A stretch of 32,000 nt of DNA, taken from assembly GCF_000284115.1 (NCBI RefSeq), contig NC_017080.1, forward strand, positions 3,090,001-3,122,000. Direction: 5' to 3'. A program made the translations under genes and the position numbers. Of this stretch, positions 1,536 through 31,603 are shown piece by piece (the first letter of the stretch is position 1; every line of letters begins with the position of its first letter). The notes under the pieces were generated by a model, which was not told where the DNA came from, did not search any database, and was given only the letters and a program-made list of their open reading frames with translations. The stretch comes from Phycisphaera mikurensis NBRC 102666. GTDB taxonomy: Bacteria; Planctomycetota; Phycisphaerae; Phycisphaerales; Phycisphaeraceae.

Positions 1536-1604
1536 GTCCGCTACGCCCAGCTCCGCCTTGGCTAAGTTGGACCCACCTCCAGCCGATGGGCGTGGACTCC
1601 CACC

Positions 1605-1859
1605 ATGACGTTCGCAAACATCCACAACGCCAAGACGCACCTCTCGAAGCTGGTGGCTGCCGCGGAGGCCGGCGAAGACGTGGTCATTGCGCGGGCGGGC
1701 AAGCCGGTCGTGCGGATGATCCCGTTCGAGAAGCCGGACACCGGGTTCGACTTCCGGGTCCCGGACCAGTTCACCGGGGAGATCTGGATGTCGGACGACT
1801 TCGATGATCCCGTCGACTTCGGGACGAACGACGATCCCGAGGATCTGGCCGAGCGATGA
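1605..1859 (+). CDS. Type II antitoxin, Phd/YefM family
   Basis: 84 aa. The N-terminus MTFANIHNAKTHLSKLV...VVIARAGKPVVRMIP fits the Phd/YefM pattern and the C-terminal tail is acidic. Its stop overlaps the next start (ATGA at 1856-1859). Confidence 0.8.
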   Translation: MTFANIHNAKTHLSKLVAAAEAGEDVVIARAGKPVVRMIPFEKPDTGFDFRVPDQFTGEIWMSDDFDDPVDFGTNDDPEDLAER

Positions 1860-2269
1860 GCTTCGGGCTCCATCCAGAGGGCTACCTCCTCGACACGCAC
1901 GTCCTGCTGCGGTGGCAGTTCGAAAGTGCGCGTCTCCCTGAGCGGGTGAGGGAGCTGCTGCGACGCGAGGACCCTCGGATCATCGTGTCGGTCTGCTCGC
2001 TCTGGGAGATCCGGATCAAGGAGCGCCTCGGGAAGCTGAAGCTCCCCGCCCGCTTCATCGACGTCCTCCGGAGTGACGCGATCCAGCGGCTCAACATCTC
2101 CACGGAGCACGCACTCACCGCCGGCGCGTTCGATCCACTGCACGGCGACCCGTTCGACCGCATGCTCGTTGCGCAGGCGCAGCTGGAGAACCTGACGCTC
2201 GTCGCCGCGGACGGCAAGCTCGCCGCCTACGGCGTGCCGATCCTCGACGCGAAGCCGAAGCGACGCTGA
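1856..2269 (+). CDS. vapC: PIN-domain ribonuclease toxin (VapC-like)
   Basis: 137 aa. PIN signature residues are present: LLDTHVLL (first Asp), SLWEIRIKE (Glu), GDPFDRMLVAQA (Asp) and LVAADGKL. The gene is translationally coupled to the upstream antitoxin. Confidence 0.85.
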   Translation: MSFGLHPEGYLLDTHVLLRWQFESARLPERVRELLRREDPRIIVSVCSLWEIRIKERLGKLKLPARFIDVLRSDAIQRLNISTEHALTAGAFDPLHGDPFDRMLVAQAQLENLTLVAADGKLAAYGVPILDAKPKRR

Positions 2270-8881: not shown

Positions 8882-9922
8882 TCAGGCGAGCTTCGGATCG
8901 TGCGGCACTTCCTTGGCCGGCTCGTTCATCCCGCCGGGCATCCGCTCGGCCGGCGGCAGATTGATCTTCTTCGCCAGGCCGACCCATCCGAGCACCTTGA
9001 TGGTGCAGTAGGTGATGTCGAACTCGAACCAGCGGAGTCCGTGCGCGGCCGATCGTGGGTTGGCGTGGTGGTTGTTGTGCCAGCCCTCCCCGAAGGAGAA
9101 CAGCGCGAGCCACCACAGGTTGGTGCTGCGGTCGCCGGTGTCCTTGTAGTTCTGGTAGCCCCAGGTGTGGCCGGCGGAGTTCACGAACCAGGTCAGGTGG
9201 AAGAACAGGACGGTGCGGACAGCGACGGCCCAGACCACCCACGAGGTCCCCACGACCCAGCCCGCCTTCTCGCTGAAGCCCAGGGCCGCGAAGGCCCACC
9301 CGCCGGCGAACAGGAGCACCATCAGGCCCACGATGGGGAGCCAGGAGTACTTCTCCAGGAAGCGGAGGCCGCGGTCCTTCATGAGGTCGGTCGCCGCCTG
9401 CGTGCGGTGCACGCCGTGGTGGTAGCGGTGCACGAACCAGAGCACGTGGGCCCAGGTGAATCCGTGCTCGGGAGAGTGCGGGTCGTGCTCGGTGTCGGAG
9501 TGCTGGTGGTGCAGCCGGTGGGTCCCGACCCAGCCGATCGGGCCGCCCTGCCAGGCGAGGCAGCCGCAGGTGGCGAGCACATACTCGAACCACTTGGGGG
9601 TCTTGAAGCTGCGGTGCGAGAGCAGCCGGTGGTAGCACAGCGTGATGCCCAGGCAACTCGCCACGAAGGTCATGATCCCCGCCATGACCAGGCCGGACCA
9701 GGTGAACAGCAGCGGGATCAGCGCCAGGGCCGCGAATGCGTGCAGCGCGATGGCGCCGCCGACGACGACCCAGTCCAGCTCGGCCCAGTTGATCCGACCC
9801 TTCTTGTGGTTGTGCTCGGAGCCGGGCACCGCCCGCTGAGCGCGGGCTGGGCGGGCCTGGATGTCGTTTCTCTGCGCTGAAGCCCCGCCGGGGGCGGGCT
9901 CCGTGGTGGCGGTCGCGGTCAT
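8882..9922 (-). CDS. Membrane fatty acid desaturase, delta-9 (stearoyl-CoA/acyl-lipid) type
   Basis: Three histidine boxes are present: HRLLSHRSF, HRLHHQHSD and GEGWHNNHHA. Several TM helices are visible. I chose the ATG at 9922 (MTATATTEP...). Confidence 0.85.
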   Translation of the reverse strand: MTATATTEPAPGGASAQRNDIQARPARAQRAVPGSEHNHKKGRINWAELDWVVVGGAIALHAFAALALIPLLFTWSGLVMAGIMTFVASCLGITLCYHRLLSHRSFKTPKWFEYVLATCGCLAWQGGPIGWVGTHRLHHQHSDTEHDPHSPEHGFTWAHVLWFVHRYHHGVHRTQAATDLMKDRGLRFLEKYSWLPIVGLMVLLFAGGWAFAALGFSEKAGWVVGTSWVVWAVAVRTVLFFHLTWFVNSAGHTWGYQNYKDTGDRSTNLWWLALFSFGEGWHNNHHANPRSAAHGLRWFEFDITYCTIKVLGWVGLAKKINLPPAERMPGGMNEPAKEVPHDPKLA

Positions 9923-10605: not shown

Positions 10606-11901
10606 CTAGCTCACCAGCGTGCTCAGCTTGAAGATCGGCAGGATGATCGCCATCGCGATGAAGCCGACGATGCCGCCCATCACCACGATCATGATCGGCT
10701 CGATCATCGAGGTCACGGTCTTGATCGTCTCCTTGAGCTGCTTCGCATAGAAGCTGCTGACCTGCTCGAGAACCTCGCCGAGCTTGCCCGACTCCTCGCC
10801 GGCGGAGATCATCTGGATCACCGGCTTGGGCAGCAGCTCGCCCTTGTGAAGCGGCGTGGTGATCTTCTTGCCCTGCTTGACGCTGTTGTAGACGTTGAGC
10901 CAGAGGCGGCGGAACATGCGGTTGCCGGAGATCTCTCCGGTGATCTGCAGGGTGTCGAGCATCGGCACGCCCGCGTTGATGAGCTCGCCCATCGTGTGCA
11001 GCGACCGGCCGATGTAGAGGCTCTTGAACATCCGCTGGAAGACCGGCACCTTCAGCTTGAGCGCGTCCACCCACCAGCCGCCCTTCTCGGTGCGGGCAAC
11101 GAAGAAGAGGGCCGCGGCGACGCTGAGCATGCCCAGGATCACAGCCCACCACCACACGACCATGAAGTCCGAGAGGTTCATCAGAATGATCGTCGGCATC
11201 GGCATCGCCGACTCCTTGCCCTCGAAGACCGCCGCGAACTTGGGCAGCACGAAGGTGAGCAGGAACATGCTGACCGCCACCGCCATCACCGCGATGATGA
11301 CCGGGTAGACCATCGCCCCGGTGACCATCCGCTTGGTCTCGATCTGCTGCGTCAGGTACGCGGCGATCCGGTCGAGCATGTGGCTGAACTGGCCGGACAT
11401 CTCCGACGCCCGGATCATGTTGATGTACAGCGGGCCGAAGAGCTTCGGGTACTTCTTCAGCGCCTCGGAGAAGGGCTTGCCCGCCTCCACGTCGCCCTTG
11501 ATCGCGAAGAGGATCTTGCGGAACTTGGCGTTCTCGACCTGCTCGGCGATGCCCTCCAGGGCGGCCCGCAGCGAGATGCCCGCCTTCACCATCACGGCGA
11601 GCTGCGTGGTGAAGCCGAGGATGTCGTTCTGGTTGGGGCCGCTGGTGTAATTGAGCGCCTTGAGCTTCGCTCCCCAGTCGGTGCCCTGCTCGGCCACGGG
11701 CGCGAGCGCGATGACCGTGTTGCCGCGGGCCCGCAGGACCTGCGACGCCGCCATGGCGGAGTCGGCCTTCAGGTTGCCGACGGAGACCTCCCCGCCGGCA
11801 TTCTTCATCTGGTAGCGGTAGAGCGGCAAGGGGTTTCGCCTCCGGGCGGTTTCTAGGAGCCGGCCTGCGGCCGTCTCGGCATTCGAGTTCTGGAGGGGCA
11901 A
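10606..11901 (-). CDS. pilC: Type IV pilus / type II secretion platform protein (PilC/GspF family)
   Basis: 431 aa with a duplicated GspF-type domain architecture and three TM segments. The N-terminus YRYQMKNAGGEVSVGNLKADS is typical of PilC. Confidence 0.85.
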   Translation of the reverse strand: MPLQNSNAETAAGRLLETARRRNPLPLYRYQMKNAGGEVSVGNLKADSAMAASQVLRARGNTVIALAPVAEQGTDWGAKLKALNYTSGPNQNDILGFTTQLAVMVKAGISLRAALEGIAEQVENAKFRKILFAIKGDVEAGKPFSEALKKYPKLFGPLYINMIRASEMSGQFSHMLDRIAAYLTQQIETKRMVTGAMVYPVIIAVMAVAVSMFLLTFVLPKFAAVFEGKESAMPMPTIILMNLSDFMVVWWWAVILGMLSVAAALFFVARTEKGGWWVDALKLKVPVFQRMFKSLYIGRSLHTMGELINAGVPMLDTLQITGEISGNRMFRRLWLNVYNSVKQGKKITTPLHKGELLPKPVIQMISAGEESGKLGEVLEQVSSFYAKQLKETIKTVTSMIEPIMIVVMGGIVGFIAMAIILPIFKLSTLVS

Positions 11902-11970: not shown

Positions 11971-13026
11971 TCAGGCGGCGATCTGACGCTCGAGCTTCTC
12001 GGGGTACGCGGCCTGGGAGAGGGCCGAGTCGCGGTCGATCATTCCGTTGAAGTAGAGCTCCGCGATGGAGTTGTCGAGCGTCTGCATGCCCAGCGGCCGG
12101 TTCGTCTCGATCACGTTGGGGATCTCGTACGTGCGGTTCTCGCGGATCAGGTTCCGGACGGCGGGCGTGCAGAGCATGATCTCGCTGGCGGGCACCATGC
12201 CCGGCTGGTCGAGCCGCTTGAAGAGCGTCTGCGAGATCACCGCCTGCAGCGTGTTCGCCAGCATCGAGCGGATCTGGTTCTGCTGGTCGGCGGGGTACAT
12301 GTCGACGATGCGCTCGACGGTGTGGGAGGCGTTGACCGTGTGCAGCGTCGAGAAGACCAGGTGGCCCGTCTCGGCGGCGGTGATCGCCGCGGCGGTCGTC
12401 TCCAGGTCGCGCATCTCCCCGACGAGGATGATGTCGGGGTCCTGCCGCAGCACGTGCCGCAGCCCGCTGGCGAAGCTGGGGGTGTCCTGCCCGAGCTCGC
12501 GTTGCTCGATCAGGCACCGCTTCGAGGGCAGGACGTACTCGATCGGATCCTCGAGGGTGATGATGTGCTTGTCGTAGCGCTCGTTCATCGCGTCGAGCAT
12601 CGCCGCCAGCGTGGTCGTCTTGCCCGAGCCGGTGTCGCCGGTCACGAGCACGAGGCCGCGGGGCAGGTACGTCAGCCGCGAGACGACCTCGGGCAGGTTG
12701 AGGTTCGGCAGCGCCGGGATCTTGGTCTTGATCGCCCGCAGCGTGATGCCGATGTGGCCGTTTTGCTGGTGGGCGTTGACGCGGAAGCGAGCGAAGTTGG
12801 GCACCTCGTAGGAGAAGTCCGCGTCGCGGATCTTCTCGAACTGCTTGAGCTTCTCGGGGCCGGCCATCGACTTGAGCATCGCCGCCGCGGACTCCGGCGT
12901 GATCACCGGGAAGTCCATGGTGGTCATCACCGTCTGGATCCGGCACTTGGGCGGGTGGCCCGCGACCAGGTGGACGTCGGAGCTGTCCAGCTCCAGGGCG
13001 GTCTTGAGGATGGTGTCCAGCTGCAT
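11971..13026 (-). CDS. pilT: Type IV pilus retraction ATPase PilT
   Basis: 351 aa from the ATG at 13026. It has Walker A GDTGSGKTTT, Walker B/Asp box DIILVGEMRD, His box TGHLVFSTLHT and the PilT-type AVRNLIRE motif. Confidence 0.9.
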   Translation of the reverse strand: MQLDTILKTALELDSSDVHLVAGHPPKCRIQTVMTTMDFPVITPESAAAMLKSMAGPEKLKQFEKIRDADFSYEVPNFARFRVNAHQQNGHIGITLRAIKTKIPALPNLNLPEVVSRLTYLPRGLVLVTGDTGSGKTTTLAAMLDAMNERYDKHIITLEDPIEYVLPSKRCLIEQRELGQDTPSFASGLRHVLRQDPDIILVGEMRDLETTAAAITAAETGHLVFSTLHTVNASHTVERIVDMYPADQQNQIRSMLANTLQAVISQTLFKRLDQPGMVPASEIMLCTPAVRNLIRENRTYEIPNVIETNRPLGMQTLDNSIAELYFNGMIDRDSALSQAAYPEKLERQIAA

Positions 13027-13131
13027 GGAGGAGGCCTGTGGGGCTCGCGGGGAGGAGCGTGGGGTTCGGGAGTTCCCGGGCGGGGAATCGACAGGCTCTC
13101 CTTCGGCCGGATGTGGGGGCGGCTGAAGCGG

Positions 13132-21747: not shown

Positions 21748-21790
21748 TTACGCTCCCTTGGCTTGACCGTTTTCTCACGAGGAGCCCGCG

Positions 21791-23077
21791 ATGCGCCACC
21801 GCCCCCTTTCCCTGCTGCTGGCTCCGTGCCTCGCCCTGCTGCCCGCTGCGCCGGGGGAAGCGGCCGGGCTGGAGGTCGTCGGCGGCGGCTTCGAGCGTGA
21901 AGGCGTCGCGTACCGGGCCGTGGGCGTGAACTACTTCGACGCCTTCCTCCGAACGCTGCGTGAGCCCGGGGACTTTCAGCGGACCCGGTCTTCGCTCACC
22001 GGCCCGGCCAATACCAGCTACGAGGCCGGCTTCGACGGCCTCGCCGCCGCCGGCGTGCCCTTCATCCGCTTCAACGCGGGCGGCTTCCGGGTGGCCGATT
22101 ACCGGCTGTACCAGAAGGACAAAGCGGCGTACCTCGCGCAGATGCGTGCCGTCGTGGACGCGGCCGACGCCCGCGGGATCGGCGTCGTGCCCTCGGTTTT
22201 CTGGCAGACGGACAGCTTCGCGGCGCTCGCCGGCGAGAACCGCGCCGCGTGGGCGGACGCCGGCAGCGCGACCCGCCGGCTCGCCGACGCCTACGCCCGC
22301 GACGTCGTCGGAGCGCTCCGGGGCGCCAACAACGTGCTGATGTGGGAGTTCGGCAACGAGTTCAATCTCCAGCAGGACCTGCCGGTCAACGACGACCGGC
22401 CCGCGACGATCTCCAGCGCCGGCGTCCGCGACGCGGTCGCGGCCTTTGCCGGGGTGGTCGCCGAGCTGGATCCGGCCCGCACCACGACGACCGGCCACTC
22501 GGTGGAGCGAACCGCCGCCGCGGCCCTCCGGCAGAGCGGGAGCTTCCGCCCGCTGGACACGCGAGAAGACTTCCGCGAGGTGACGATCACCGACCACGCG
22601 GGCGTCGGCGTGATCAGCGCGCACCTCTACCAGCATTCGGCGCTGGGCCTGGATCCCAAAGATTCCACCGCCGATCCGGCGGTGCGTTTCGGCGAGCCCG
22701 GCCTCGCGTACGTCGAGGTCGTCGCGGAGCTGATGGCCGCGAGCGCCGCCTCCGGCAAGCCGCTGTTCCTCGGCGAGTTCGGCGTGGGCGAAGGCTCGGC
22801 CCTCGGCGCCCCCGACGCACCCGCCACGGAAGCGGAGCAGCTGCGGTACCTGCTCGACGCGATCGTGGAGGAGCAGGTCCCGCTGTCAGCGCTGTGGGTC
22901 TACGACCGCCTGTTCACCGGGCGCAACGAGCTGGACTACACGATCACGACCCGCAACGACCGTGCGGACCGGCTCGCGCTGATCGCCGAGGCGAATCGCC
23001 GGCTCGCCGTGCCCGAGCCGGGCACGCTCGGGCTCGCGGGCGCGGCCGCTCTGCCGCTGCTCCGCCGCCGCCGCTGA
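21791..23077 (+). CDS. Glycoside hydrolase family 5-like enzyme with C-terminal PEP-CTERM sorting signal
   Basis: It has a signal peptide, NVLMWEFGNEFN (acid/base Glu of the GH5 NE motif) and LFLGEFGV (nucleophile Glu). The C-terminus VPEPGTLGLAGAAALPLLRRRR is PEP, a TM helix and an Arg cluster. A GAGGAG Shine-Dalgarno sequence lies 6 nt before the ATG. Confidence 0.75.
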   Translation: MRHRPLSLLLAPCLALLPAAPGEAAGLEVVGGGFEREGVAYRAVGVNYFDAFLRTLREPGDFQRTRSSLTGPANTSYEAGFDGLAAAGVPFIRFNAGGFRVADYRLYQKDKAAYLAQMRAVVDAADARGIGVVPSVFWQTDSFAALAGENRAAWADAGSATRRLADAYARDVVGALRGANNVLMWEFGNEFNLQQDLPVNDDRPATISSAGVRDAVAAFAGVVAELDPARTTTTGHSVERTAAAALRQSGSFRPLDTREDFREVTITDHAGVGVISAHLYQHSALGLDPKDSTADPAVRFGEPGLAYVEVVAELMAASAASGKPLFLGEFGVGEGSALGAPDAPATEAEQLRYLLDAIVEEQVPLSALWVYDRLFTGRNELDYTITTRNDRADRLALIAEANRRLAVPEPGTLGLAGAAALPLLRRRR

Positions 23078-23101: not shown

Positions 23102-26100
23102 ATGAGCGGTCCTCCTGAGCATCCCCGCCCCTCCGACGCCCGCCGCCAGGACGTGCCCGCGCTGCGCGCTCTCTGGAAGAAGATCCAGCACGCGCAGAGC
23201 CGCAACCGCCCGCACGACCGCGACCTCGCCCGCTTCGAGAAGCGGCTGGCGGCCTCCGTCGCGGCGAAGGCGGAGCGGGCGGCGGCGGCCCCGGATGTTT
23301 CTTACCCGGCCGACCTGCCGGTCTCGGCGGAGAAGGACCGGATCAAGGAGCTGATCGCGCGATACCAGGTCGCGGTGCTGTGCGGCGAGACCGGCTCGGG
23401 CAAGAGCACGCAGCTGCCCAAGATCCTGATGGAGCTGGGCCACGGCAGCGACGGCGTCATCGCCCACACCCAGCCGCGGCGGCTGGCGGCGCGCACACTG
23501 GCGCAGCGGGTGGCGGCGGAGCTGTCGGTGCCGGTGGGCGGCGTGGTCGGCCACTCGGTGCGGTTCGAGGACCGGACCGGGCCGCAGACGCGGATCCGCT
23601 ACCTGACCGACGGGCTTCTGCTCGCCGAGCTGGCACGCGACCCCGACCTGCTCGCCTGCGACGCGGTGATCGTCGACGAGGCCCACGAGCGGTCGCTGAA
23701 CATCGACTTCCTCCTGGGCTACCTCAAGCGGCTGCTGCCGCGGCGGCCGGACCTGAAGCTGGTCATCACGTCGGCGACGATCAACACGCAGCTGTTCGCC
23801 GAGCACTTCCGCGACGAAGCGGGCGAGCCCGCGCCCGTCATCGAGGTCAGCGGGCGGACGTACCCGGTCGAGGTGCGGTACGCGCCGCCGGAGGACGCCA
23901 GCGATGCCGCCGCGGACCGGGCGCTCCTGGAGGCCTTCGACGCCGCGGTCCGCGGCACCCCCGGCGACGTGCTGGTCTTCCTGCCGACCGAGCGGGCGAT
24001 CGGCGACGCGGCGAGGCTGCTGCGGGGCCACACGCAGGCCCGGAGCTTCCCGGGCGGGAGCGTGGAGGTGCTGCCGCTCTACGCGCGGCTGTCCAACGCC
24101 GAGCAGCAGCGGGTCTTCTCGCCCTCGGGGCCGGGCCGGCGGGTCGTGCTCGCGACGAACGTCGCGGAGTCCTCCGTCACGGTCCCGCGGATCACCTCCG
24201 TCATCGACACCGGGACCGCCCGCATCTCCCGCTACTCCGCGCGGGCGCGGATGCAGCGGCTGCCGATCGAGCCCGTGAGCCAGGCGAGCTGCAGGCAGCG
24301 GGCGGGCCGCTGCGGGCGGGTTGCCCCCGGCCTGTGCATCCGGCTCTACAGCGAGGAGGACTTCGACGACCGCCCGGCCTTCGAGGCGCCCGAGGTTCTG
24401 CGGACGAGCCTCGCCTCGGTCATCCTCACGATGTCGTCGATGGGGCTGGGCGACCCCGCCGACTTCCCCTTTCTGGAGCCGCCCCGGCCGGCCGCGATCC
24501 GCGAGGGCCGCAAGACGCTGCACGAGCTGGGCGCCGCCGAGAAGGACGGCACGCTGACGGAGCTCGGCCGCCGGATGGCCACGCTGCCGGTCGACCCCCG
24601 CGTCGCCCGCATGATCTTCGCCGGTGCGGAGGAGGGCTGCCTGGCCGAGGTTCTGGTCATCGCCGCCGCGCTGGAGGCGCAGGACCCGCGGCTGCGGCCG
24701 GTCGAGAAGCAGCAGGCGGCCGACCAGGCGCACCGGCCCTTCGTCCACCCCCGCAGCGACTTCCTCACCCTCCTGAACCTCTGGGACGGCATCCATCGCG
24801 AGAAGGACAGCCTCTCCGGCGGGGCGTTCAAGCGTTGGTGCTCGCGGACGTTCCTGTCGCACCCGAAGGTCCGCGAGTGGGCAGAGCTGCACCGGCAGCT
24901 GGTGGAGACCGCCCGCGGGGCCGGCCTGTCTCCGAAGCGTCGGACGCCGGGCCCCGAAGCGGTCGAGAAGCTCGGCGACGCGGTCACGCGGGCGCTGCTC
25001 GCGGGCCTGCTGTCCAACGTCGCGCTCCGCGAGGACGGACCCGCTTACAAAGCGGCCGGCGCCGAATCGGGCGATCGGGAGCTGTTCCTCTGGCCGGGGT
25101 CGGCGCTCGCCAGAGCGAAACCCCGGTGGGTCGTCGCGGCGGAGGTCGTGTCGACGACGCGGCAGTACGCGCGGACCTGCGCCCAGATCGACCCGCGCTG
25201 GATCGAGGATCTCGCCGGCGACCTCGTCACGCAGACCCACAGCAACCCGCGGTGGGAGCGCGAGGCCGGCGGCGTCTTCGCCGACGAGAAGGTGTCCTTC
25301 CGGGGCCTGGTGCTCGTGCCGAAGCGGCGGGTGAAGCTCAGCCACGTCGACCCCGTGCAGGCGCGGGAGATCTTCCTGCACGAGGCGCTGGTCGGCGGCG
25401 ACGCCGACCTGACGGCGCCCTTCTTCCTGCACAACCGCGAGCTGGAGCGTGGCATCGAGGAGGAGCAGGCCCGGCTGCGCCGGGTCGACCTGCTGGCGGA
25501 CGCGAAGCGGCGCTACCGCTTCTACGACGAGCGGCTGCCCGCCGAGGTGACCGGCGTGGCCGAGCTGAACCGCTGGCTGAAGAGAGCGAGCGAGGCACGG
25601 CGGCGCCGCCTGTTCATGGCCGAGGCCGACCTCCGGGAGCAGGAGGCGGAGGAGGACCCGGGCCGCCCTGCGACGATCGAGACCGGCGGGCTGGTGCTGC
25701 CGGTGCGGTACGTGCACGACGCGTCGGCGGAAGACGACGGCGCGACGCTGGAGGTCCCGCTCGCGGTGCTCGGCCGCGTCGGGAAGGAGCGGCTGGACTG
25801 GGGCCTGCCCGGGCAGCTCGAGGAGCGGCTGGCGGCCGTGATCCGCTCGCTGCCCAAGCCGATCCGCAAGACGCTTGCGCCGGCGCCCGACTCCGCCCGC
25901 CGGGCCGCGGCACGCATCCGCTTCGGCGAGGGCGGGTTCCGGGCGGCGGCCGCCGAGGCCCTCGGCTGGGTCCGCGGCGAGGCGCTTGACCCGCTGCTCA
26001 TCGACGTCGCCGCGCTCGACCGGCACCTCCGCCTCGGCGTCGCCGTGCTCGACGACGCCGGCAAGGAACTCGCCCAGGGCCGCGACCTCGACGCGCTCAA

Positions 26101-27067
26101 GGAGGAGCTCGCCGCCAGCGCCGGCCGGGCCGTGGCCGGCCTCGCCGACGACCGCTGGATCCGCGACGGACTGGTTTCCTGGAGCTTCGGAGACCTGCCC
26201 GAGACGGTCGACGTGGCGCACGCGGGCGTGAGGCTGCGCTGCTTCCCCACGCTGCTCGACCGCGGCGAGAGCGTCTCGCTGCGGGCGGTGGAGACGGCGG
26301 CCGAGGCCGAAGCGACGTTTCCCCGCGGCGTGCTGCGCCTCGCCCGGCTCGCCGTGCGGAGAGACCTCGTGAAGCGGGTGGAAGGCGCCCGCGGGGCGCA
26401 GCCGCTCGCGCTGATCGCCTCGACGCTCCCCGGCGGCGCGGCGGCACTCCAGCGCGACCTCGCCGACGCGGCGAGCGCCCGCGTCTTCGTGCCCCTGATC
26501 GAGGCCCACCCGTCCCGGAGCGCCGCCGCCTTCGAGGCCCTCGTCGAGGCCGGCCGCGGCGACCTCGCCGGCGCCGCCAGCGAGGCGACCGCCGAAGCCG
26601 CCGCCGCGCTCGGGCAGGGCCACGCCCTGCGCCTCGAGCTCGAGCGTCTCGCCAGACGCTGCCCGCCCGGCTGGGAGACGGCGGTGCGGCAGAGCCGAGA
26701 GCAGCTCGAGGACCTCCTGCGGCCCCGGTTCGTCGCCACCACGCCGGCCGGCCGGCTCCGCCACCTCGGCCGCTATCTCGCCGCCTCCCGCGAACGCCTC
26801 GCCGCGCTGGCCCGCGGCAAGCTCGCGAAGGACCGACCGCTCGCCGACGCCTTCGACCGGCGGATGGGGCCGCTGCGGGCACGCCTGAGCGAGGCGGGCG
26901 GCAGCGCCGCGCTGGAGAGCTCGCCCGAGCTGGCGGCCTACCGCTGGATGCTCGAGGAGTGGCGTGTCGCGCTCTTCGCCGCCGGGCTGGGCACCAGCCA
27001 GCCCGTCAGCGAGAAGCGCCTCGAGAAGCAGGCCGCCAAGGCCGACCGCGAGGCCCGCGGGGGCTAG
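23102..27067 (+). CDS. hrpA: ATP-dependent RNA helicase HrpA (DEAH box)
   Basis: 1321 aa. Recognised motifs are GETGSGKSTQLP, DEAHERSLNIDFLLG, SATI, LPLYARLS..EQQRVF, TNVAESS and QRAGRCGR. The long HrpA-type C-terminal extension ends ...WRVALFAAGLGTSQPVSEKRL. Confidence 0.93.
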   Translation: MSGPPEHPRPSDARRQDVPALRALWKKIQHAQSRNRPHDRDLARFEKRLAASVAAKAERAAAAPDVSYPADLPVSAEKDRIKELIARYQVAVLCGETGSGKSTQLPKILMELGHGSDGVIAHTQPRRLAARTLAQRVAAELSVPVGGVVGHSVRFEDRTGPQTRIRYLTDGLLLAELARDPDLLACDAVIVDEAHERSLNIDFLLGYLKRLLPRRPDLKLVITSATINTQLFAEHFRDEAGEPAPVIEVSGRTYPVEVRYAPPEDASDAAADRALLEAFDAAVRGTPGDVLVFLPTERAIGDAARLLRGHTQARSFPGGSVEVLPLYARLSNAEQQRVFSPSGPGRRVVLATNVAESSVTVPRITSVIDTGTARISRYSARARMQRLPIEPVSQASCRQRAGRCGRVAPGLCIRLYSEEDFDDRPAFEAPEVLRTSLASVILTMSSMGLGDPADFPFLEPPRPAAIREGRKTLHELGAAEKDGTLTELGRRMATLPVDPRVARMIFAGAEEGCLAEVLVIAAALEAQDPRLRPVEKQQAADQAHRPFVHPRSDFLTLLNLWDGIHREKDSLSGGAFKRWCSRTFLSHPKVREWAELHRQLVETARGAGLSPKRRTPGPEAVEKLGDAVTRALLAGLLSNVALREDGPAYKAAGAESGDRELFLWPGSALARAKPRWVVAAEVVSTTRQYARTCAQIDPRWIEDLAGDLVTQTHSNPRWEREAGGVFADEKVSFRGLVLVPKRRVKLSHVDPVQAREIFLHEALVGGDADLTAPFFLHNRELERGIEEEQARLRRVDLLADAKRRYRFYDERLPAEVTGVAELNRWLKRASEARRRRLFMAEADLREQEAEEDPGRPATIETGGLVLPVRYVHDASAEDDGATLEVPLAVLGRVGKERLDWGLPGQLEERLAAVIRSLPKPIRKTLAPAPDSARRAAARIRFGEGGFRAAAAEALGWVRGEALDPLLIDVAALDRHLRLGVAVLDDAGKELAQGRDLDALKEELAASAGRAVAGLADDRWIRDGLVSWSFGDLPETVDVAHAGVRLRCFPTLLDRGESVSLRAVETAAEAEATFPRGVLRLARLAVRRDLVKRVEGARGAQPLALIASTLPGGAAALQRDLADAASARVFVPLIEAHPSRSAAAFEALVEAGRGDLAGAASEATAEAAAALGQGHALRLELERLARRCPPGWETAVRQSREQLEDLLRPRFVATTPAGRLRHLGRYLAASRERLAALARGKLAKDRPLADAFDRRMGPLRARLSEAGGSAALESSPELAAYRWMLEEWRVALFAAGLGTSQPVSEKRLEKQAAKADREARGG
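23910..23955. repeat. 46-nt hairpin repeat, copy 6 (perfect arms), inside the hrpA helicase core CDS
   Basis: CCGCGGACCG at 23910-23919, a 26-nt spacer, then CGGTCCGCGG at 23946-23955. The segment encodes AADRALLEAFDAAVRG. Confidence 0.9.
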
Positions 27068-27072
27068 AGCAT

Positions 27073-27214
27073 CGTGCGCAATTTTCCGATCGGCCTGCGT
27101 CCGCGCGTCGTGTTCCTCGTGAGGAGGCGAAGCAGCCCTGCCCCTGCAGGGCGATGCAGCCGACGAAGCGAGGGGCACGACTCGCCCGCAGAGGCGATCG
27201 GAGAATTGCGCACG
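27073..27214 (+). other. 142-nt imperfect rod-like hairpin (candidate structured RNA or ERIC/MITE-like palindromic element) directly 3' of hrpA
   Basis: The outer arms CGTGCGCAATTTTCCGATCG (27073-27092) and CGATCGGAGAATTGCGCACG (27195-27214) pair over 20 bp with one U-G. Pairing continues inward (27105-27119 with 27169-27183) to an apical hairpin at 27132-27157 that contains the palindrome CCCTGCAGGG. Three of the four non-Watson-Crick positions in these two arm stems (27084/27203, 27113/27175, 27114/27174) are U-G on the + strand, which would be C-A on the minus strand. The fourth (27106/27182) is a C-U mismatch. Confidence 0.5.
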
Positions 27215-27252
27215 GTGCGCTAAGGACGCGGACCCTCCGGAGCATGACCGAG

Positions 27253-27287
27253 CGGTCATGGATCGGCGGCCCGCCGATCCATGACCG
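27253..27287. promoter_or_regulatory. 35-nt perfect palindrome (17-bp arms, 1-nt centre), candidate operator or alternative hairpin
   Basis: CGGTCATGGATCGGCGG-c-CCGCCGATCCATGACCG. A further direct copy of CATGACCG at 27243-27250 can pair with 27253-27260 instead. The element ends 30 bp upstream of the -35 box at 27317. Confidence 0.5.
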
Positions 27288-27316
27288 GACCCGGAAAGGC
27301 GGGGAGGAGCCGCCGC

Positions 27317-27344
27317 TTGACTGCGACGAAGAAAGTCGTAGTAT
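27317..27344 (+). promoter_or_regulatory. Near-consensus sigma70-type promoter for the PEP-CTERM / prepilin-like / DUF4198-Kelch cluster
   Basis: TTGACT (27317-27322), a 16-nt spacer, then TAGTAT (27339-27344). This AT-rich island stands out in otherwise GC-rich DNA. It predicts a leader of roughly 180 nt before the ATG at 27533. Confidence 0.55.
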
Positions 27345-27384
27345 CCGCTCCTCGGGTCGCGGCGTCGCGGCCCGCGTCCGCACA

Positions 27385-27425
27385 GCAGACGACCGGCTTC
27401 CCTGGACGGTGCGCCGGTCGTCTGC
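27385..27425 (+). promoter_or_regulatory. Perfect 12-bp stem hairpin in the predicted 5' leader
   Basis: GCAGACGACCGG, a 17-nt loop, then CCGGTCGTCTGC. No U-tract follows it. A second small hairpin, GTTCC-cgaaa-GGAAC (27512-27526), covers the AAGGA Shine-Dalgarno sequence. Confidence 0.4.
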
Positions 27426-27532
27426 CTTCATCCGACGACCCGGAGGTCGCCGGCCCGCAGCATCCCCCGGCGCCGCCTGCGCCGCAAGCGAGCTCGGCCG
27501 GTGCGACCCGGGTTCCCGAAAGGAACGACCCC

Positions 27533-28210
27533 ATGATCGCCCCGAACCCGACCGCCCCCGGCCGCTGCGCGCTCGCGCTCGCCACCTCCGCGCTGCTCGT
27601 CGGCCCGGCCTCCGCCTCCGTCGCGCCCGGTTGGGACCGGCCGACGACGCCCGCGGACGCCGCGGCGGCCGGAACCTCCTACACGGCGTGGGACGTGTTC
27701 ACCGGCACGACCGAGCTCGCGCCCGACGTCGCCGAGGTGAACGCGGCCGGCTCCGCCCGGCTGAGCGAAACCACCGGAGAAGCCTTCGCCACCGGGAGCG
27801 GGAACATCTACTCCTTCTCCGCCGCAACGGCCTTCGACATCGCCCTGCCGGCCACGGCCACGCCGGGCGGCGTGACCGACTTCCAGTTGCAGCTCCGCAC
27901 GCTCGGCACCGCCCTGGACCTCGGCTCGGTCATGCTCGACGGTGTCGCGGCTTCAAGCCTCGCGGGCTTCTCCTACGCCGAGACCGGCAGGCTCCCGCTC
28001 GGCGGCTTCGGCGGCGACCGGGTGGACCACCTCTTCCGCTTCACCGGGCCGGCCGGCGGCGACGCGACGCTCCGCTTCGCCGCCGCGGGCAGCAGCATGA
28101 GCCTCGACCGGGTCTGGATCGACACACGCGTCCGCGCCGTGCCCGAGCCCGGCCCCGCGGCGCTCGCGCTCGCCGGTGTCGGCCTGCTCGCCCGCCGCCG
28201 CGGGGCTTGA
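27533..28210 (+). CDS. Secreted PEP-CTERM domain protein of unknown function
   Basis: 225 aa. It has a signal peptide (ALALATSALLVGPASA) and the C-terminus AVPEPGPAALALAGVGLLARRRGA (PEP, a TM helix and an Arg cluster). An AAAGGA Shine-Dalgarno sequence lies 8 nt upstream. Confidence 0.7.
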   Translation: MIAPNPTAPGRCALALATSALLVGPASASVAPGWDRPTTPADAAAAGTSYTAWDVFTGTTELAPDVAEVNAAGSARLSETTGEAFATGSGNIYSFSAATAFDIALPATATPGGVTDFQLQLRTLGTALDLGSVMLDGVAASSLAGFSYAETGRLPLGGFGGDRVDHLFRFTGPAGGDATLRFAAAGSSMSLDRVWIDTRVRAVPEPGPAALALAGVGLLARRRGA

Positions 28211-28258
28211 GCCCACGCCTCTCCCCCTCGGCTGACGCCCTCCAACCAAGGAGTCCCC

Positions 28259-29161
28259 GTGCCCCCCCGCCCCCCGGCGCCCGCGGTTCGCGGCCGCCGC
28301 TGCCGCTGCCGCTGCTCCGCGTTCACGCTCATCGAGCTGCTGGCGGTCGTCTCGATCGTCGGCCTGCTCGTCGGCTTGCTGCTCCCGGTGCTCGCGGCGG
28401 CGCGGATCGCGGCGAACCACGTCGTCTACCTCTCGGCGGCCCGCCAGCTTTGCAGCGGCTACACCGCCTACCACGCCGACCACGGCGGCGACCTCCTGCT
28501 GGGCTACACGCCGCCGGCGATCGGCGGCGTGCCGGTGACCGTCCGCGACGCCATCAGCGGCCAGACCTTCGGCTACCCGGTCAGCGACCGGTACCCCTGG
28601 CGGCTGTCCCCCTGGGTCGGCGACGTCTGGCCGCTCCTGCACCTCCACGCGGAGGACCCGCAGCGGCCGGCGGCGGGCGACGCCCCCCCGGTCGCTCAGG
28701 CGAAGGCCTACCGGCTCAGCGTCGGGCCGGCCTTCGGCCTCAACAGCGTCTACCTCGGCGGCCACGCCGGCCCCTTCTACCGCGGCTTCAGCGCACCCGG
28801 CAACCGGCCGACGCGCAACGCGCACGTCGCCTTCCGCGCCGCCGAGGTCCGCGACGCGGCGGCGCAGGTCGTGTTCGCCGAGAGCCGGCTGCGCAACGCG
28901 GGCTCCGCCGCCGACCCCGACGCCGGCCTGCACTTCGTCAGCCCCCCGCGGGCCAACGGCCGGCGCTGGGTGGCCGCCGGCGGCGGCTTCGAGATCGCCA
29001 GCGGCCTGGTGACCGGCCTCCCGCTGGGCCGGCACGGGCCGGCCGCGGCCACCGCCTTCTTCGACGGGCACGCGGCCTCCCGCACGCCCGAGCAGCTGGC
29101 CGACATGCGCGGCTGGGCGCCCCGCGCCACCGACGCCGACTGGGACTTCCGATCGCCATGA
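28259..29161 (+). CDS. Prepilin-type N-terminal cleavage/methylation domain protein with H-X9-DG tail (DUF1559-like pseudopilin)
   Basis: The prepilin motif and hydrophobic helix read FTLIELLAVVSIVGLLVGLLLPVL. The C-terminus GRHGPAAATAFFDGH is H, 9 residues, then DG. An AAGGAG Shine-Dalgarno sequence lies 6 nt before the GTG at 28259. Confidence 0.85.
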   Translation: MPPRPPAPAVRGRRCRCRCSAFTLIELLAVVSIVGLLVGLLLPVLAAARIAANHVVYLSAARQLCSGYTAYHADHGGDLLLGYTPPAIGGVPVTVRDAISGQTFGYPVSDRYPWRLSPWVGDVWPLLHLHAEDPQRPAAGDAPPVAQAKAYRLSVGPAFGLNSVYLGGHAGPFYRGFSAPGNRPTRNAHVAFRAAEVRDAAAQVVFAESRLRNAGSAADPDAGLHFVSPPRANGRRWVAAGGGFEIASGLVTGLPLGRHGPAAATAFFDGHAASRTPEQLADMRGWAPRATDADWDFRSP

Positions 29162-31167
29162 CCTTCCCTCCCCCGAGACCTTCCATGACCCCCCGCTTCC
29201 TCCTGCGAGCCGTTCCGGTCCTCGCGGCCCTGCTCACGCCCGCCGCGAATGCCCACTTCGTCTTCGTCGTGCCCGACGCCCCCGAAGCGACCGCCACCGG
29301 CCAGCCGGGGGGCGTCTCGGTCCTGATGAGCGAGAACCTCGAGCCCGACGCCGAGGTGCCGGTGGCGATCGTGTCCGGCGCCGAGCTCTCCGTGCGGGAC
29401 GCCGACGGCACGCAGCGCCCGCTCGACCTCGGCCCGGCCGACGGCGACCGCTTCAGGATCGACCTGCCCGCCGCCGCCGATCCCGAGGCCCCGCGCGTCG
29501 TCCGCGGCCTGGTCGACCTGGGCTTCACGCGACGCGGCGACGGCCCGGGCCACCTGCTGCTCTACCACCCCAAGACGATCCTCGGCGACGCTCTCGCGCC
29601 GTCCACGAGGCTTCGCTGGGGCGTGCCGGTGGAGCTGGTCCCCGTGGCGGACGGCGGCGGCGCCCGGCTGGTGCTGCTCGGCAACGGCCAGCCGCTGGCC
29701 GGGGCGGAGGTCACCGTGATCCACCCCGACGGGCGTGAGGAAGTCGTGACCACCGACGCCCGAGGCCGCACGCCGGTGCTGGCCGCGGGCGGCCGCTACG
29801 GCGCCTGGGCCCGCTTCTGGGTCGATGCGGACGGCGAGCGGGACGGCGAAGCCTTCACGCAGATCCGCCACTACGCCACGCTCGTGTTCGACGCGGACCG
29901 CGGCCTCGGCGGGGCCGGGGCCGCCGCTCCCGGCGCGGCCGCGGAGGAGGCTCCGGCGGCCGACGCCGGCCACGCGATCGAGCGGATCGCCGCGCTGCCC
30001 GAGGCCGCCGCCAGCGGCGGGATCGCCGCCGCCGGCGGCTGGCTCTACGCCTACGGCGGCCACGTCACGCCGACGCACGCGTACCACCGCGAGGCCGTGT
30101 CGGGCGCCTTCCACCGCGCCCGCCTCGACCGGCTCGCCGGCGGCGACGCGTCCGCCTGGGAGGCGTTGCCCGCCGGGGAGCCGCTCCAAGGCATGAACCT
30201 CGCCGCGCTCGGCGGCAAGCTCTACCTCGCCGGCGGCATGCAGCCGCAGAACCGCGAGGGCCACGAAGAAGACAACCGCTCCGTCGCCGACGCCCGCGTC
30301 TTCGATCCCGCCGCCGGCGCCTGGGGCGACCTGCCGCTGCTGCCCGAGCCCCGCTCCTCCCACGACCTGGTCGCCCTCGGCGGGAAGCTCTGGGTCGTCG
30401 GCGGCTGGCACATGCACGGCCGGGCGCAGACGTGGTCCGACACGATCCTCTGCCTCGACCCCGCGGCCGAGTCGCCCCGCTGGGAGGCACGCCCGCAGCC
30501 GTTCCGACGCCGCGCCCTGATCGCCGCCGCGTTCGAAGACCGCCTCTGGGTCATCGGCGGCATGAACGACGCGCAGAAGATCCCCGCCGCCGTCTCCATC
30601 TACGACCCCGCCTCCAACGCCTGGGCCGACGGCCCGCCCCTGCCCGCCGGCCGCTTCAATGGCTTCTCGCCCGCGGCCTGCGTCGCCGGCGGCCGGCTCT
30701 ACGTGAGCGTCGCCGACGGCACGCTGCTCCGCCTGTCCGCGGCAAAGGACGCGTGGGAGGAGGTCGCCCGCGCCGCCCCGCGGGTGGTCCACCGCATGGT
30801 CGCCGACGAAGCCCGCGGCCGGCTGCTGCTCGCCGGCGGTGCCTGGGACGGCGACAACCTCGACCGCATCGACGCGGTGGAGATCCCCGGACTCGCCGGA
30901 GCGACACCCGGCACGCCCGAGGCCGACGCCGACGCCCCGCCCGACGCAGCCGCCGCGGCCGCGTCCGCCGCCGCGGCCGCGGCGCAGACCCACTGCCCCG
31001 TGATGCCGAAGGTCGGGGTGAGCGAGGCGAGCCGCACCGTCTTCCACCGCGGCCACACGGTCCGCCTCTGCTGCCGCCTCTGTGTGAAGCACTGGAACGC
31101 AGACCCGCTGGCCTTCGCCGACCCCGACCTGCTCCCGCAGCTGCGGGCGGCGCCGAGCGACTCCTGA
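29158..31167 (+). CDS. Fusion protein: signal peptide, DUF4198-like domain, Kelch-repeat beta-propeller and C-terminal Cys/His (YHS/TRASH-like) module
   Basis: The ATG overlaps the upstream stop (ATGA at 29158-29161). The signal peptide ends ...TPAANA followed by HFVFVVPD, the His-first start typical of DUF4198. A later block reads GNGQPLAGAEVTVIHPDG...TTDARGRT. There are 5-6 Kelch-like blades (GGKLYLAGGM, GGKLWVVGGW, EDRLWVIGGM, GGRLYVS, RGRLLLAGGA). The tail reads HCPVMPKVGV...FHRGHTVRLCCRLCVKHWNADP. Confidence 0.75.
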   Translation: MTFPPPRPSMTPRFLLRAVPVLAALLTPAANAHFVFVVPDAPEATATGQPGGVSVLMSENLEPDAEVPVAIVSGAELSVRDADGTQRPLDLGPADGDRFRIDLPAAADPEAPRVVRGLVDLGFTRRGDGPGHLLLYHPKTILGDALAPSTRLRWGVPVELVPVADGGGARLVLLGNGQPLAGAEVTVIHPDGREEVVTTDARGRTPVLAAGGRYGAWARFWVDADGERDGEAFTQIRHYATLVFDADRGLGGAGAAAPGAAAEEAPAADAGHAIERIAALPEAAASGGIAAAGGWLYAYGGHVTPTHAYHREAVSGAFHRARLDRLAGGDASAWEALPAGEPLQGMNLAALGGKLYLAGGMQPQNREGHEEDNRSVADARVFDPAAGAWGDLPLLPEPRSSHDLVALGGKLWVVGGWHMHGRAQTWSDTILCLDPAAESPRWEARPQPFRRRALIAAAFEDRLWVIGGMNDAQKIPAAVSIYDPASNAWADGPPLPAGRFNGFSPAACVAGGRLYVSVADGTLLRLSAAKDAWEEVARAAPRVVHRMVADEARGRLLLAGGAWDGDNLDRIDAVEIPGLAGATPGTPEADADAPPDAAAAAASAAAAAAQTHCPVMPKVGVSEASRTVFHRGHTVRLCCRLCVKHWNADPLAFADPDLLPQLRAAPSDS

Positions 31168-31241
31168 AGCGGCGGGCCGCCGCCGCCGTCACGCGCCGCC
31201 GGTTGCGGGTGCTGCCGGATCGGGGTGCCGGGCCTCGCGGG

Positions 31242-31448
31242 TCAGGCCGCCGCGGCGGCGAAGCCCGCGCAGCCGCTGATCGGCGTGACCTTCAGGCGCA
31301 GGCTCTCGTTGCGGGGATGGCCGCAGGGCTCGGTCATCCCGGCCGGGGCCGAGCGGGAGGTGCGGATCTGCACGAGCGGGGGCCGGTTCGGCTCGCCCTC
31401 GCCGAAGTGCCGACAGAGACCGCACTGACCGTCTTGGAGCGTGAGCAT
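31242..31448 (-). CDS. Small Cys-rich hypothetical protein (68 aa)
   Basis: MLTLQDGQCGLCRHFGEGEP...CGHPRNESLRLKVTPISGCAGF. The four Cys are arranged CxxC ... C ... C. Nearly every codon ends in G/C, as in the neighbouring real genes. No family was recognised and no Shine-Dalgarno sequence is visible. Confidence 0.45.
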   Translation of the reverse strand: MLTLQDGQCGLCRHFGEGEPNRPPLVQIRTSRSAPAGMTEPCGHPRNESLRLKVTPISGCAGFAAAAA

Positions 31449-31546
31449 GGTGGAAGATCGTCCGCTTCGGAGGGCGACTGAAGCGCTGCGGCGGCCGCCG
31501 GGGCACCTCACGCCGGCCCCGCTTGGCGCTCCCGCCGCGTCCCCGC

Positions 31547-31592
31547 CGCGGACCGCGGCCGCTTCCGCCCGCTTGGGACCGCGGTCCGCGGA
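31547..31592. repeat. 46-nt hairpin repeat, copy 7 (perfect arms, extendable to 13 bp), intergenic between the YhcH-like gene and the small Cys ORF
   Basis: CCGCGGACCGcgg at 31547-31559 pairs with ccgCGGTCCGCGG at 31580-31592. Each arm is here a full 13-nt palindrome, CCGCGG-W-CCGCGG. Confidence 0.9.
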
Positions 31593-31603
31593 TCCGGGCC
31601 GCT

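Follow-up and report, generated by a model that had tools for sequence, protein, structure and literature searches.

We analyzed a stretch of 32,000 nucleotides (nt) of the Phycisphaera mikurensis NBRC 102666 genome (NC_017080.1, positions 3,090,001 to 3,122,000; here referred to as the window; G+C content, ~75%), focusing on a cluster of three genes, g1, g2, and g3, at 27533-31167. An initial annotation of the window, made from the sequence alone, had described these genes as tightly linked, as coding for envelope proteins with three different sorting signals, and as a possible fixed partnership of a PEP-CTERM protein, a DUF1559-type pilin-like protein, and a large secreted DUF4198-Kelch-Cys/His fusion protein. 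The three open reading frames (ORFs) are co-oriented on the plus strand, and independent gene callers (including the calls in assembly GCA_014207395.1) give the same three genes, which code for proteins of 225, 300, and 660 amino acids (aa), respectively. All three sorting signals are present, i.e., a Sec signal with a PEP-CTERM tail in g1, a prepilin-type N terminus in g2, and a signal peptide in g3.

The cluster follows the hrpA gene for an HrpA helicase (23102-27067, plus strand), from which g1 is separated by a spacer of 465 nt. This spacer contains a candidate sigma-70-like promoter, TTGACT-16-TAGTAT, at 27317..27344 on the plus strand. The assignment is a consensus match only; the site is the sole sigma-70-like site within 26900-31600, in line with the single promoter that the initial annotation had placed ahead of the cluster, and shuffled sequence yields 0.0 such sites. 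Approximately 30 nt 5' of the −35-like hexamer lies a perfect inverted repeat of 17+17 nt with 1 nt between the arms (35 nt; 27253..27287; CGGTCATGGATCGGCGG c CCGCCGATCCATGACCG; 100% complementary), which could be a regulator site/operator or mark the end of the hrpA transcript. A third, partial copy of CATGACCG is located beside this palindrome at 27243-27250. Further downstream, an inverted-repeat search identified a leader hairpin (27385..27425, plus strand) whose perfect stem has 13 bp and whose loop has 15 nt; the overall stability of the leader (27350-27540) is not unusual (z = −1.47). Using Rfam, we found no match in the window or in 11 related loci and, for the leader at E ≤ 1, nothing beyond one chance match. 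A B12 or NiCo riboswitch in the leader was rejected because there was no Rfam match and the fold was not significant.

g1 is preceded at a distance of eight nt by a Shine-Dalgarno-like site, AAGGA (27520-27524, plus strand). The gap between g1 and g2 is 48 nt and contains, as previously described, an AAGGAG Shine-Dalgarno sequence (28248..28253, plus strand) six nt before the GTG start codon of g2 at 28259. The second junction had been described as an ATGA overlap. Such an overlap with the g2 stop codon exists for an ATG at 29158, but the gene callers place the g3 start at the ATG at 29185, giving a 23-nt g2-g3 gap and a 23-aa signal peptide that resembles those of g3 homologs. Because the callers use the start at 29185 and the relatives keep gaps of 18-29 nt before g3, the overlap is doubtful as a start, and the real g2-g3 junction is probably the 23-nt gap. 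No terminator-like site was found on the plus strand between the three genes. With one promoter-like site, Shine-Dalgarno-like sequences before g1 and g2, short gaps, and no internal terminator, the cluster has operon-type features; it is a probable operon for three envelope proteins, and a single transcript would originate from the promoter-like site at 27317-27344.

g1 (225 aa; 27533..28210, plus strand) consists of a signal peptide at approximately residues 1-29, with the Sec-type N terminus MIAPNPTAPGRCALALATSALLVGPASAS, a beta-sandwich, and a PEP-CTERM tail (residues 202-225; nt 28136-28210 including the stop codon, plus strand). The C terminus, VPEPGPAALALAGVGLLARRRGA, has the VPEP/hydrophobic/Arg-rich organization with the pattern VPEPGP...RRRGA. 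This tail is kept across 23 g1 homologs, in which P204 is invariant and P206 nearly so, and 13 of the 23 family members match TIGR02595 (E ≤ 0.01). Some other family members carry dockerin-like insertions ahead of the tail. The family shares the motifs TYQEWDVFT, GGGNIYSF, LGGFGG, and GSSMSLD, and no Pfam model was found for the globular part. The NCBIfam model NF038129 is matched weakly by 15 of the 23 members (19.5 bits for g1 of the window; cut-off, 65). A HMMER search against 1.84 billion representatives returned 284 clusters (50% identity) at E ≤ 1e-30 and 776 at E ≤ 1e-10, and g1 therefore represents a sizeable unnamed family. An AlphaFold2 (AF2) model of g1, with a predicted local distance difference test (pLDDT) score of 82.6, is a jelly-roll-like sandwich; its comparison with PDB gave no significant fold and only weak matches with low template modeling scores to beta-sandwiches of carbohydrate-binding modules and adhesins. 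In related loci (numbered with the prefix L), additional PEP-CTERM-tailed proteins are encoded beside the g1 gene (L136, 8807-10520; L140, 5129-5800; L141, 5128-5820), and the g1 gene of L139 is accompanied by a gene for a g1 paralog with dockerin-like repeats at its end and no PEP-CTERM tail (5232-6071).

g2 (300 aa; 28259..29161, plus strand) starts with a prepilin-type N terminus, in which the leader MPPRPPAPAVRGRRCRCRCSA has a predicted cleavage site before F22 and E26 as the Glu at position +5; the globular domain comes after a long N-terminal helix. g2 matches N_methyl (PF07963) with 23.1 bits (cut-off, 21.2) and TIGR02532 with 19.9 bits (cut-off, 16.3), supporting its earlier description as prepilin-like. 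The prepilin N-terminal model is matched by all 32 of 32 g2 relatives, with the N_methyl motif and Glu+5 conserved in all of them. F22 (+1) and E26 (+5) are invariant in the family, and position −1, a Gly in the canonical cleavage site, is Ala in g2 and Ala or Gly in the relatives; Ala may be tolerated there by prepilin peptidases. The family is well defined (~290 aa; 41-61% identity), with members in Fontivita, Tepidisphaeraceae, Phycisphaerales, and other Planctomycetota, and is characterized by the motifs RYPWRL, G(I/L)NSVY(V/L)GG, IVFAE, FFDGH, and DMRLWA and by the conserved residues H130, H189, D269, and H271. The AF2 model of g2 has a pLDDT of 93.5 and a predicted template modeling (pTM) score of 0.86. 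In PDB, it had no match at E < 0.001, and the best matches were pilins, through the helix only.

In contrast to the prepilin-type N terminus, membership of g2 in DUF1559 did not hold. At E ≤ 1, g2 matched neither DUF1559 (PF07596) nor TIGR04294; among the 32 relatives, three had a weak match to the former (best E, 0.019) and one to the latter (E, 0.11), and some relatives carry the H-X9-DG name in the annotation of the Joint Genome Institute (JGI). The H-X9-DG string itself is found in g2 (HGPAAATAFFDG), but the His is not conserved. Its position is occupied by Y/F/H/N/W in the family (consensus, GR[YF]...FFDGH), in which D269 is invariant and G270 nearly invariant. Using hhalign, a helix-trimmed g2 profile aligned to eight PF07596-positive proteins with a probability of 96.4% (E, 1.3e-9), and this alignment spans only the last ~86 columns, FFDGH included. 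Because g2 has no match to the Pfam and TIGR04294 models, yet is aligned by hhalign over these C-terminal columns, we classify it on profile evidence as a distant relative of the DUF1559/H-X9-DG proteins rather than a member, and as a distinct family.

g3 (660 aa; 29185..31167, plus strand; the alternative start at 29158 would give 669 aa) contains a signal peptide (29185-29253), a DUF4198-like domain (~29254-29892) followed by an Ala-rich linker, a Kelch propeller (~29995-30909), and a YHS/TRASH-like Cys domain with the pattern CPVM...x22...CCRLC (~30976-31134), all on the plus strand. Of the domains previously proposed, Kelch is strongly supported by profile searches (Kelch_1, E 1.6e-18; Kelch_6, E 1.4e-14; Kelch proteins in PDB, E 3.5e-21), while DUF4198 is borderline, with 34.8 bits for the isolated N-terminal domain relative to a cut-off of 34. 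A DUF4198 match at E ≤ 1 was found in 12 of 14 g3 relatives, and the prealbumin/CarboxypepD_reg-like region of g3 covers only positions 129-191 of the 209 positions of the DUF4198 profile. A profile search with the N-terminal domain against solved structures, including DUF4198, found none. JGI annotates some g3 relatives as "uncharacterized GH25 family protein," which we take to be the COG name corresponding to DUF4198. The would-be mature N terminus of g3 is His24 (29254-29256, plus strand), and a His directly after the AxA signal peptide site (AANA/HFVFVVP, with the slash marking the cut) is found in 117 of 120 g3 homologs.

Within the Kelch propeller, YxYGGHx4HxY (residues 288-300; nt 30046-30084) and H393-D394 (nt 30361-30366) are invariant in all 120 homologs, and H536 (nt 30790-30792) is kept in 118 of them. 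This His/Tyr cluster is a candidate metal or active site foreign to generic Kelch proteins. A galactose-oxidase-like copper radical enzyme was considered and found to be unsupported, as there is no conserved Cys in the propeller and all Kelch matches in PDB are generic. The Cys-containing C-terminal part also stood: 22 sequences share the conserved tail pattern C-x22-CC-x2-C, and the tail is YHS/TRASH-like, but the tail of the window protein itself had no match to YHS. The domain is single in g3 of the window and occurs twice in tandem in L003 (3497-3829) and L005 (9741-10094). Homologs of g3 fall into two classes, i.e., proteins of ~700 aa with the Cys tail in Phycisphaerae and proteins of ~530 aa without it in Acidobacteria. 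In L086, the g3 ortholog is interrupted by an in-frame stop codon (9537-9576), which leaves two genes, one DUF4198-like (206 aa) and one Kelch (391 aa); the split may be a sequencing error (6x long-read assembly) or real. In L005, a gene for a 187-aa lipoprotein with the Cys-rich motif CDELHGDACETPWDYCCEP and no Pfam match (7274-7837) lies between a MacB-type ATP-binding cassette (ABC) efflux system and the g3 homolog.

For a survey of gene neighborhoods, we collected the contigs of homologs of each of the three genes together with 46 metagenome loci found with the helix-trimmed g2 profile, and scored all loci using hidden Markov models (HMMs) of g1, g2, and the three g3 domains. (When genome contigs were scanned with the full g2 alignment, the generic FTLIELLVV pattern returned almost only unrelated pilin-like genes.) A close g2 ortholog was defined by an HMM score of >360. 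Based on this criterion, we identified 15 loci with close g2 orthologs, 13 of which include upstream DNA and could be assessed for the preceding gene (the window, here also L001, as well as L086, L087, L088, L090-L094, L096, and L139-L141). In all 13 of these loci, a g1-family gene is located directly upstream of the g2 ortholog. The gene after g2, by comparison, varies. It is a g3-type DUF4198-Kelch gene in five loci (the window, L086, L088, L093, and L095), a gene for a DUF6607 (RhuH-type haemophore) protein in another five (L091, L094, L096, L140, and L141), a gene for a secreted His-rich CbiX-like protein in L087 (Fontivita pretiosa) and L090, with CopD next in L087, and a ChuX/HutX gene in L092 and L097, with Peripla_BP_2 and FecCD next in L097; in one locus, L139, nothing follows on the same strand. 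Thus, the invariable pairs and the varied genes after them support g1+g2 as the fixed unit, with a slot in third place. In Phycisphaerae, the two genes stay together as a conserved envelope module. Of the neighborhood predicted for g2 by the initial annotation, the preceding PEP-CTERM gene is found in all 13 assessable loci, while the DUF4198-like gene follows in only 5 of 15 loci and is replaced by four other arrangements in the remainder; a fixed three-gene partnership is not upheld.

In 14 of the 15 loci, a haem- or metal-related gene is located downstream of g2 on the same strand, and in the exception, L139, a gene for haem oxygenase is found upstream of g1 at a distance of three genes. 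The measured gaps between g2 and the slot gene range from 18 to ~435 nt and are mostly short. Most of the slot (or cargo) proteins carry a signal peptide; ChuX/HutX of L092 and L097 are without one. The full triad is found in the closest relatives, L086 (59-64% identity) and L088, and the L086 cluster is surrounded by genes for FTR1, Rrf2, a CzcB-type resistance-nodulation-division pump, and a YHS/HMBD P-type ATPase. In L003 and L005, the g3-type gene occurs without g1 or g2, and L137 contains g1 followed by a DUF4198-Kelch gene and an MFS_3 transporter gene, and no g2. Neither partner accompanies the more distant g2-like genes (score, 100-200), with the exception of L136 and L138, in which g1 and the g2-like gene are in one cluster with other genes between them.

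The scan with the full g2 alignment provided a negative control, namely, 80 loci from Planctomycetota, Verrucomicrobiota, Lentisphaerota, and others, each centered on a gene that is defined solely by a generic match to the prepilin-type N terminus. None of the 80 loci had a match to a g3 domain, and one had a weak match to the g1 tail. Because almost none of the controls show the pairing, it is specific to the g2 subfamily. In ~6-7 of the 49 control loci with a callable downstream ORF, the pilin-like gene is directly followed by a gene for a ~155-aa lipoprotein. Among the six lipoproteins of this size (L038, L050, L072, L074, L076, and L080) and a 90-aa ORF (L070) that were scanned, those of L038, L074, and L076 had sub-threshold CarboxypepD_reg matches and those of L072 and L074 weak matches to the C-terminal part of DUF4198, and no domain match was found for the ORFs of L050, L080, and L070. 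The pilin-like gene and the lipoprotein gene may be a recurrent pairing, a faint echo of the initial suggestion of a partnership between pilin-like genes and genes for DUF4198-like sandwiches. The loci with a pilin-like gene and a ~155-aa lipoprotein gene are from Planctomycetia, with the pair ~7 kb into each locus. Directly after other generic pilin-like genes, we observed genes for a DUF4465 protein with a PEP-CTERM tail (L035, 6898-7767) and a di-haem cytochrome c peroxidase (CCP_MauG; L021, 7108-8145).

The four cargo types were compared with characterized proteins. ChuX together with a binding protein and a FecCD permease makes up the inner part of the classical haem uptake operon, and this layout is found in L097. 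DUF6607 matches the solved haemophore RhuH (PDB 8xjc) with an E value of 5e-61. RhuH of Riemerella anatipestifer extracts haem from haemoglobin, and rhuH is divergent from the TonB-dependent receptor genes rhuR-rhuA (PMC11967795). In the literature searched, DUF6607 is not mentioned by name. On a Sphingomonas plasmid, a DUF6607 gene is located 14 nt after a gene for a TonB-dependent haemoglobin/transferrin receptor, and on a Bernardetia plasmid, a DUF6607 gene is divergent from genes for a TonB receptor, DoxX, and HmuY. DUF4198 genes adjoin genes for TonB receptors and NikR; the hallmark of the family is an N-terminal His, found in 79%, and IsDUF4198 of Ideonella sakaiensis binds Ni (Kd, 18 nM) (PMC12537917). 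Zcp of Neisseria gonorrhoeae, also a DUF4198 protein, binds Zn. Within the 11 loci covered by gene calls (L001, L086-L089, and L136-L141), no TonB-receptor Pfam family was found among the called genes. Because of the RhuH match, the neighbors of DUF4198 genes, and the ChuX-importer layout, we read all four cargo types as haem or metal acquisition proteins.

Among other features of the window, a gene for a PilC/GspF-type platform protein (10606-11901, minus strand; PF00482, E 4e-62) and a gene for a PilT-type ATPase (11974-13032, minus strand; PF00437, E 1e-47) place pilus or type II secretion system (T2SS) machinery within the window. These two genes are ~15 kb from g2 with unrelated genes between, and their stretch has a G+C content of 0.66-0.69, compared with ~0.75. 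No exosortase or prepilin peptidase was found among the window ORFs that were scanned, which are part of the window ORFs. Just upstream of hrpA, a gene at 21767-23074 (plus strand) codes for a second PEP-CTERM protein of the window; this protein is GH5 cellulase-like (PF00150, E 2.7e-5), and its tail scores 19.4 bits, just below the cut-off. Downstream of g3, a 68-aa Cys-rich ORF (31242-31448, minus strand), which is called as a gene in public assemblies, converges on the cluster, as does a DUF386 gene. The 68-aa ORF contains CGLC, a CG, and one more C, and has no Pfam match. Finally, two small overlapping ORFs at 1566-2266 (plus strand) look, by eye, like a Phd/YefM-type antitoxin and a PIN-domain toxin.

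Taken together, we consider that there is an even chance that g1+g2 is a haem/metal-acquisition module, with g3 as one of its interchangeable metal-binding partners. The metal-related role suggested by the initial annotation is plausible, and it is the gene context of the relatives that backs it. For this module, we infer co-transcription, metal binding, physical interaction, and a role in uptake. All three products would cross the inner membrane, g1 and g3 via Sec. A prepilin peptidase would cut g2 before F22, and the protein would then either be held by its N-terminal helix or become part of a short (pseudo)pilus; g1 would be anchored, or processed by an exosortase, via its PEP-CTERM helix. 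The ligand of g3 would be a transition metal of the Ni, Zn, Co, or Cu class, bound at the surface or within the periplasm, with the N-terminal His domain and the Cys tail as candidate metal sites, and g1+g2 would serve as an envelope-side receptor or relay for the ligand of the cargo protein. In a more specific version, which is possible but which we hold only tentatively, g1+g2 would stand in for a TonB-dependent receptor, receiving or relaying haem and transition metals at the outer envelope. Equally tentatively, the ligand would in that case be received from interchangeable capture proteins, i.e., the RhuH-type haemophore, the DUF4198-Kelch protein, and the CbiX-like protein.

Several observations weigh against a role of g1+g2 in haem/metal acquisition. 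Gene adjacency alone is no proof of a common function, and the survey is a small sample of 15 phylogenetically related loci, albeit with at least four independent cargo types. Neither a metal-regulator box nor a riboswitch was found upstream of the cluster, and neither g1 nor g2 has a recognizable ligand-binding fold. Some domain assignments are below their thresholds, including the g1 tail in Pfam PEP-CTERM (PF07589; 17.5 bits; cut-off, 20.7), the whole g3 protein in DUF4198 (PF10670; 32.0 bits; cut-off, 34), the tails of four g3 relatives in YHS (PF04945; 18-27.5 bits; cut-off, 30.3; E 3e-6 to 3e-3), and CbiX, which is below the curated threshold. In L136 and L138, the genes that separate the pair code for two PEP-CTERM proteins and for DUF2167 and TSP3_bac, respectively, and have no metal link. 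Because g3-type genes lack g2 in L003, L005, and L137 and also occur in Acidobacteria, g3 is independent of the pair.

Four other explanations were weighed against this background. As the main alternative, the pair could serve dedicated export or display, without uptake. In this case, g1 would be a surface anchor and g2 a pseudopilin dedicated to the cargo within a type II secretion-like machine, and the product of the neighboring gene would be moved across the outer membrane or held on it. Secretion is a necessity for haemophores, with a separate route for every known class (PMC11967795). The signal peptides of most cargo proteins, the match of the g2 N terminus to GspG/GspH-type models, and the ATPase and platform genes of a T2SS or type IV pilus in the window would all fit such a function. 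However, the GspG-type matches concern the generic pilin helix only, ChuX/HutX of L092 and L097 have no signal peptide, the binding protein and FecCD of L097 are an import layout, and L139 has nothing after g2, and we regard export or display as unlikely. We see a smaller chance still that the pair consists of a generic surface protein (g1) and a minor pilin (g2) of the envelope or for adhesion, mechanistically unconnected to their haem/metal neighbors, which would then reflect shared regulation (for example, in surface remodeling under starvation) or a chance island structure. PEP-CTERM and pilin-like paralogs are very numerous in genomes of the Planctomycetes-Verrucomicrobia-Chlamydiae (PVC) superphylum (PMC10632474), as illustrated by the second PEP-CTERM protein (GH5) in the window; in addition, the pair is interrupted by unrelated genes in L136 and L138, and neither the g1 nor the g2 fold resembles that of a known binding protein. 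Such an explanation would have to account for a haem/metal gene after g2 in 14 of 15 loci and a haem oxygenase gene upstream in L139, for four unrelated cargo types, and for generic prepilin-type controls that show none of this.

The model of the initial annotation, in which a fixed PEP-CTERM/DUF1559/DUF4198-Kelch triad forms one surface capture module, is now very improbable. The triad is kept in L086 and L088, and L137 has g1 right before the DUF4198-Kelch gene, but 10 of 15 loci with close g2 orthologs are without g3, g3 is found alone elsewhere, and g2 is not a DUF1559 protein by Pfam criteria. Least probable of all, g2 could be a periplasmic binding protein anchored in the inner membrane that passes the cargo ligand to an inner membrane transporter without forming a fibre. 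The Pfam name of DUF1559 is "SBP_bac_10," and an early paper treats DUF1559 as a solute-binding family (PMC2754498); H130, H189, D269, and H271 are kept in g2, and an ABC importer and CopD follow in L097 and L087, respectively. Yet, L097 already has Peripla_BP_2, g2 has no fold likeness to binding proteins, and the N_methyl motif with Glu+5 in 32 of 32 relatives points to pilin-type processing.

These associations provide a testable hypothesis for a DUF1559-like family, namely, that the g1+g2 pair acts in haem and metal acquisition, possibly without a TonB-dependent receptor. If the pair does stand in for such a receptor, this would be the first lead to a function for the very large expansions of DUF1559-like pilins in the PVC superphylum. 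DUF1559-type proteins are the largest paralog group in Planctopirus limnophila, with 68 copies of which two are essential (PMC10632474). In the literature searched, no function is assigned to DUF1559, H-X9-DG is not mentioned in this sense, and a recent review of Planctomycetota mentions neither TonB nor pilin nor PEP-CTERM. Taken singly, each of the three proteins either joins a known kind as a new member or is distantly related to one. The same literature does not describe the constant coupling of a PEP-CTERM gene with a pilin-like gene, nor the connection of this pair to haemophores, haem importers, and metal binders. Moreover, three unnamed families are open to modeling and annotation, namely, the beta-sandwich PEP-CTERM family of g1, the pilin-like family of g2, and the DUF4198-Kelch(-YHS) fusions with an N-terminal His and an invariant His/Tyr cluster.

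Compared with known systems, the three proteins each combine familiar and distinct traits. g1 is like the proteins of the PEP-CTERM/exosortase system (TIGR02595) in its signal peptide, VPEP motif, hydrophobic helix, and Arg cluster; the system as described has no pilin-like gene partner, whereas g1 has one. g2 shares with the DUF1559 and TIGR04294 families a prepilin helix and a globular domain of ~250 aa with an ending of the ...DG(H/S)V type, but lacks the Cys pair (C46 and C120) that is conserved in the DUF1559 set. It also differs in having motifs of its own (RYPWRL, GINSVYVGG, FFDGH, and DMRLWA), in that the His of H-X9-DG is not conserved, and in that it is always preceded by a g1-family PEP-CTERM gene. 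g3, as the DUF4198 metal binders Zcp and IsDUF4198, has a His right after the signal peptide, but only g3 has a Kelch propeller and a Cys-rich tail, and it adjoins the pilin-like/PEP-CTERM pair, whereas DUF4198 genes elsewhere adjoin a TonB receptor gene. The g3-type tail has the C-x(~22)-C-x3-C spacing and the ...DPxxY ending of YHS/TRASH (PF04945 and PF24273), and is set apart as a distinct subfamily by its CC-x2-C doublet and CP(I/V)M start.

The known loci closest to the g1+g2 loci in gene content are those centered on TonB-dependent receptors, including RhuR/RhuA/RhuH, HasR/HasA, and ChuA-ChuS/X-ChuTUV. Genes for a TonB-dependent receptor, TonB, or ExbBD were not found in the g1+g2 loci examined, and g1 and g2 share neither sequence nor fold with TonB-dependent receptors. 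The accessory genes of these systems, however, are also found beside g1+g2, i.e., those for the RhuH-type haemophore, ChuX/HutX, Peripla_BP_2 with FecCD, haem oxygenase, and DUF4198. Relative to the Sphingomonas and Bernardetia plasmids, g1+g2 occupies the position of the gene for the TonB-dependent receptor, a likeness of layout and not of membership.

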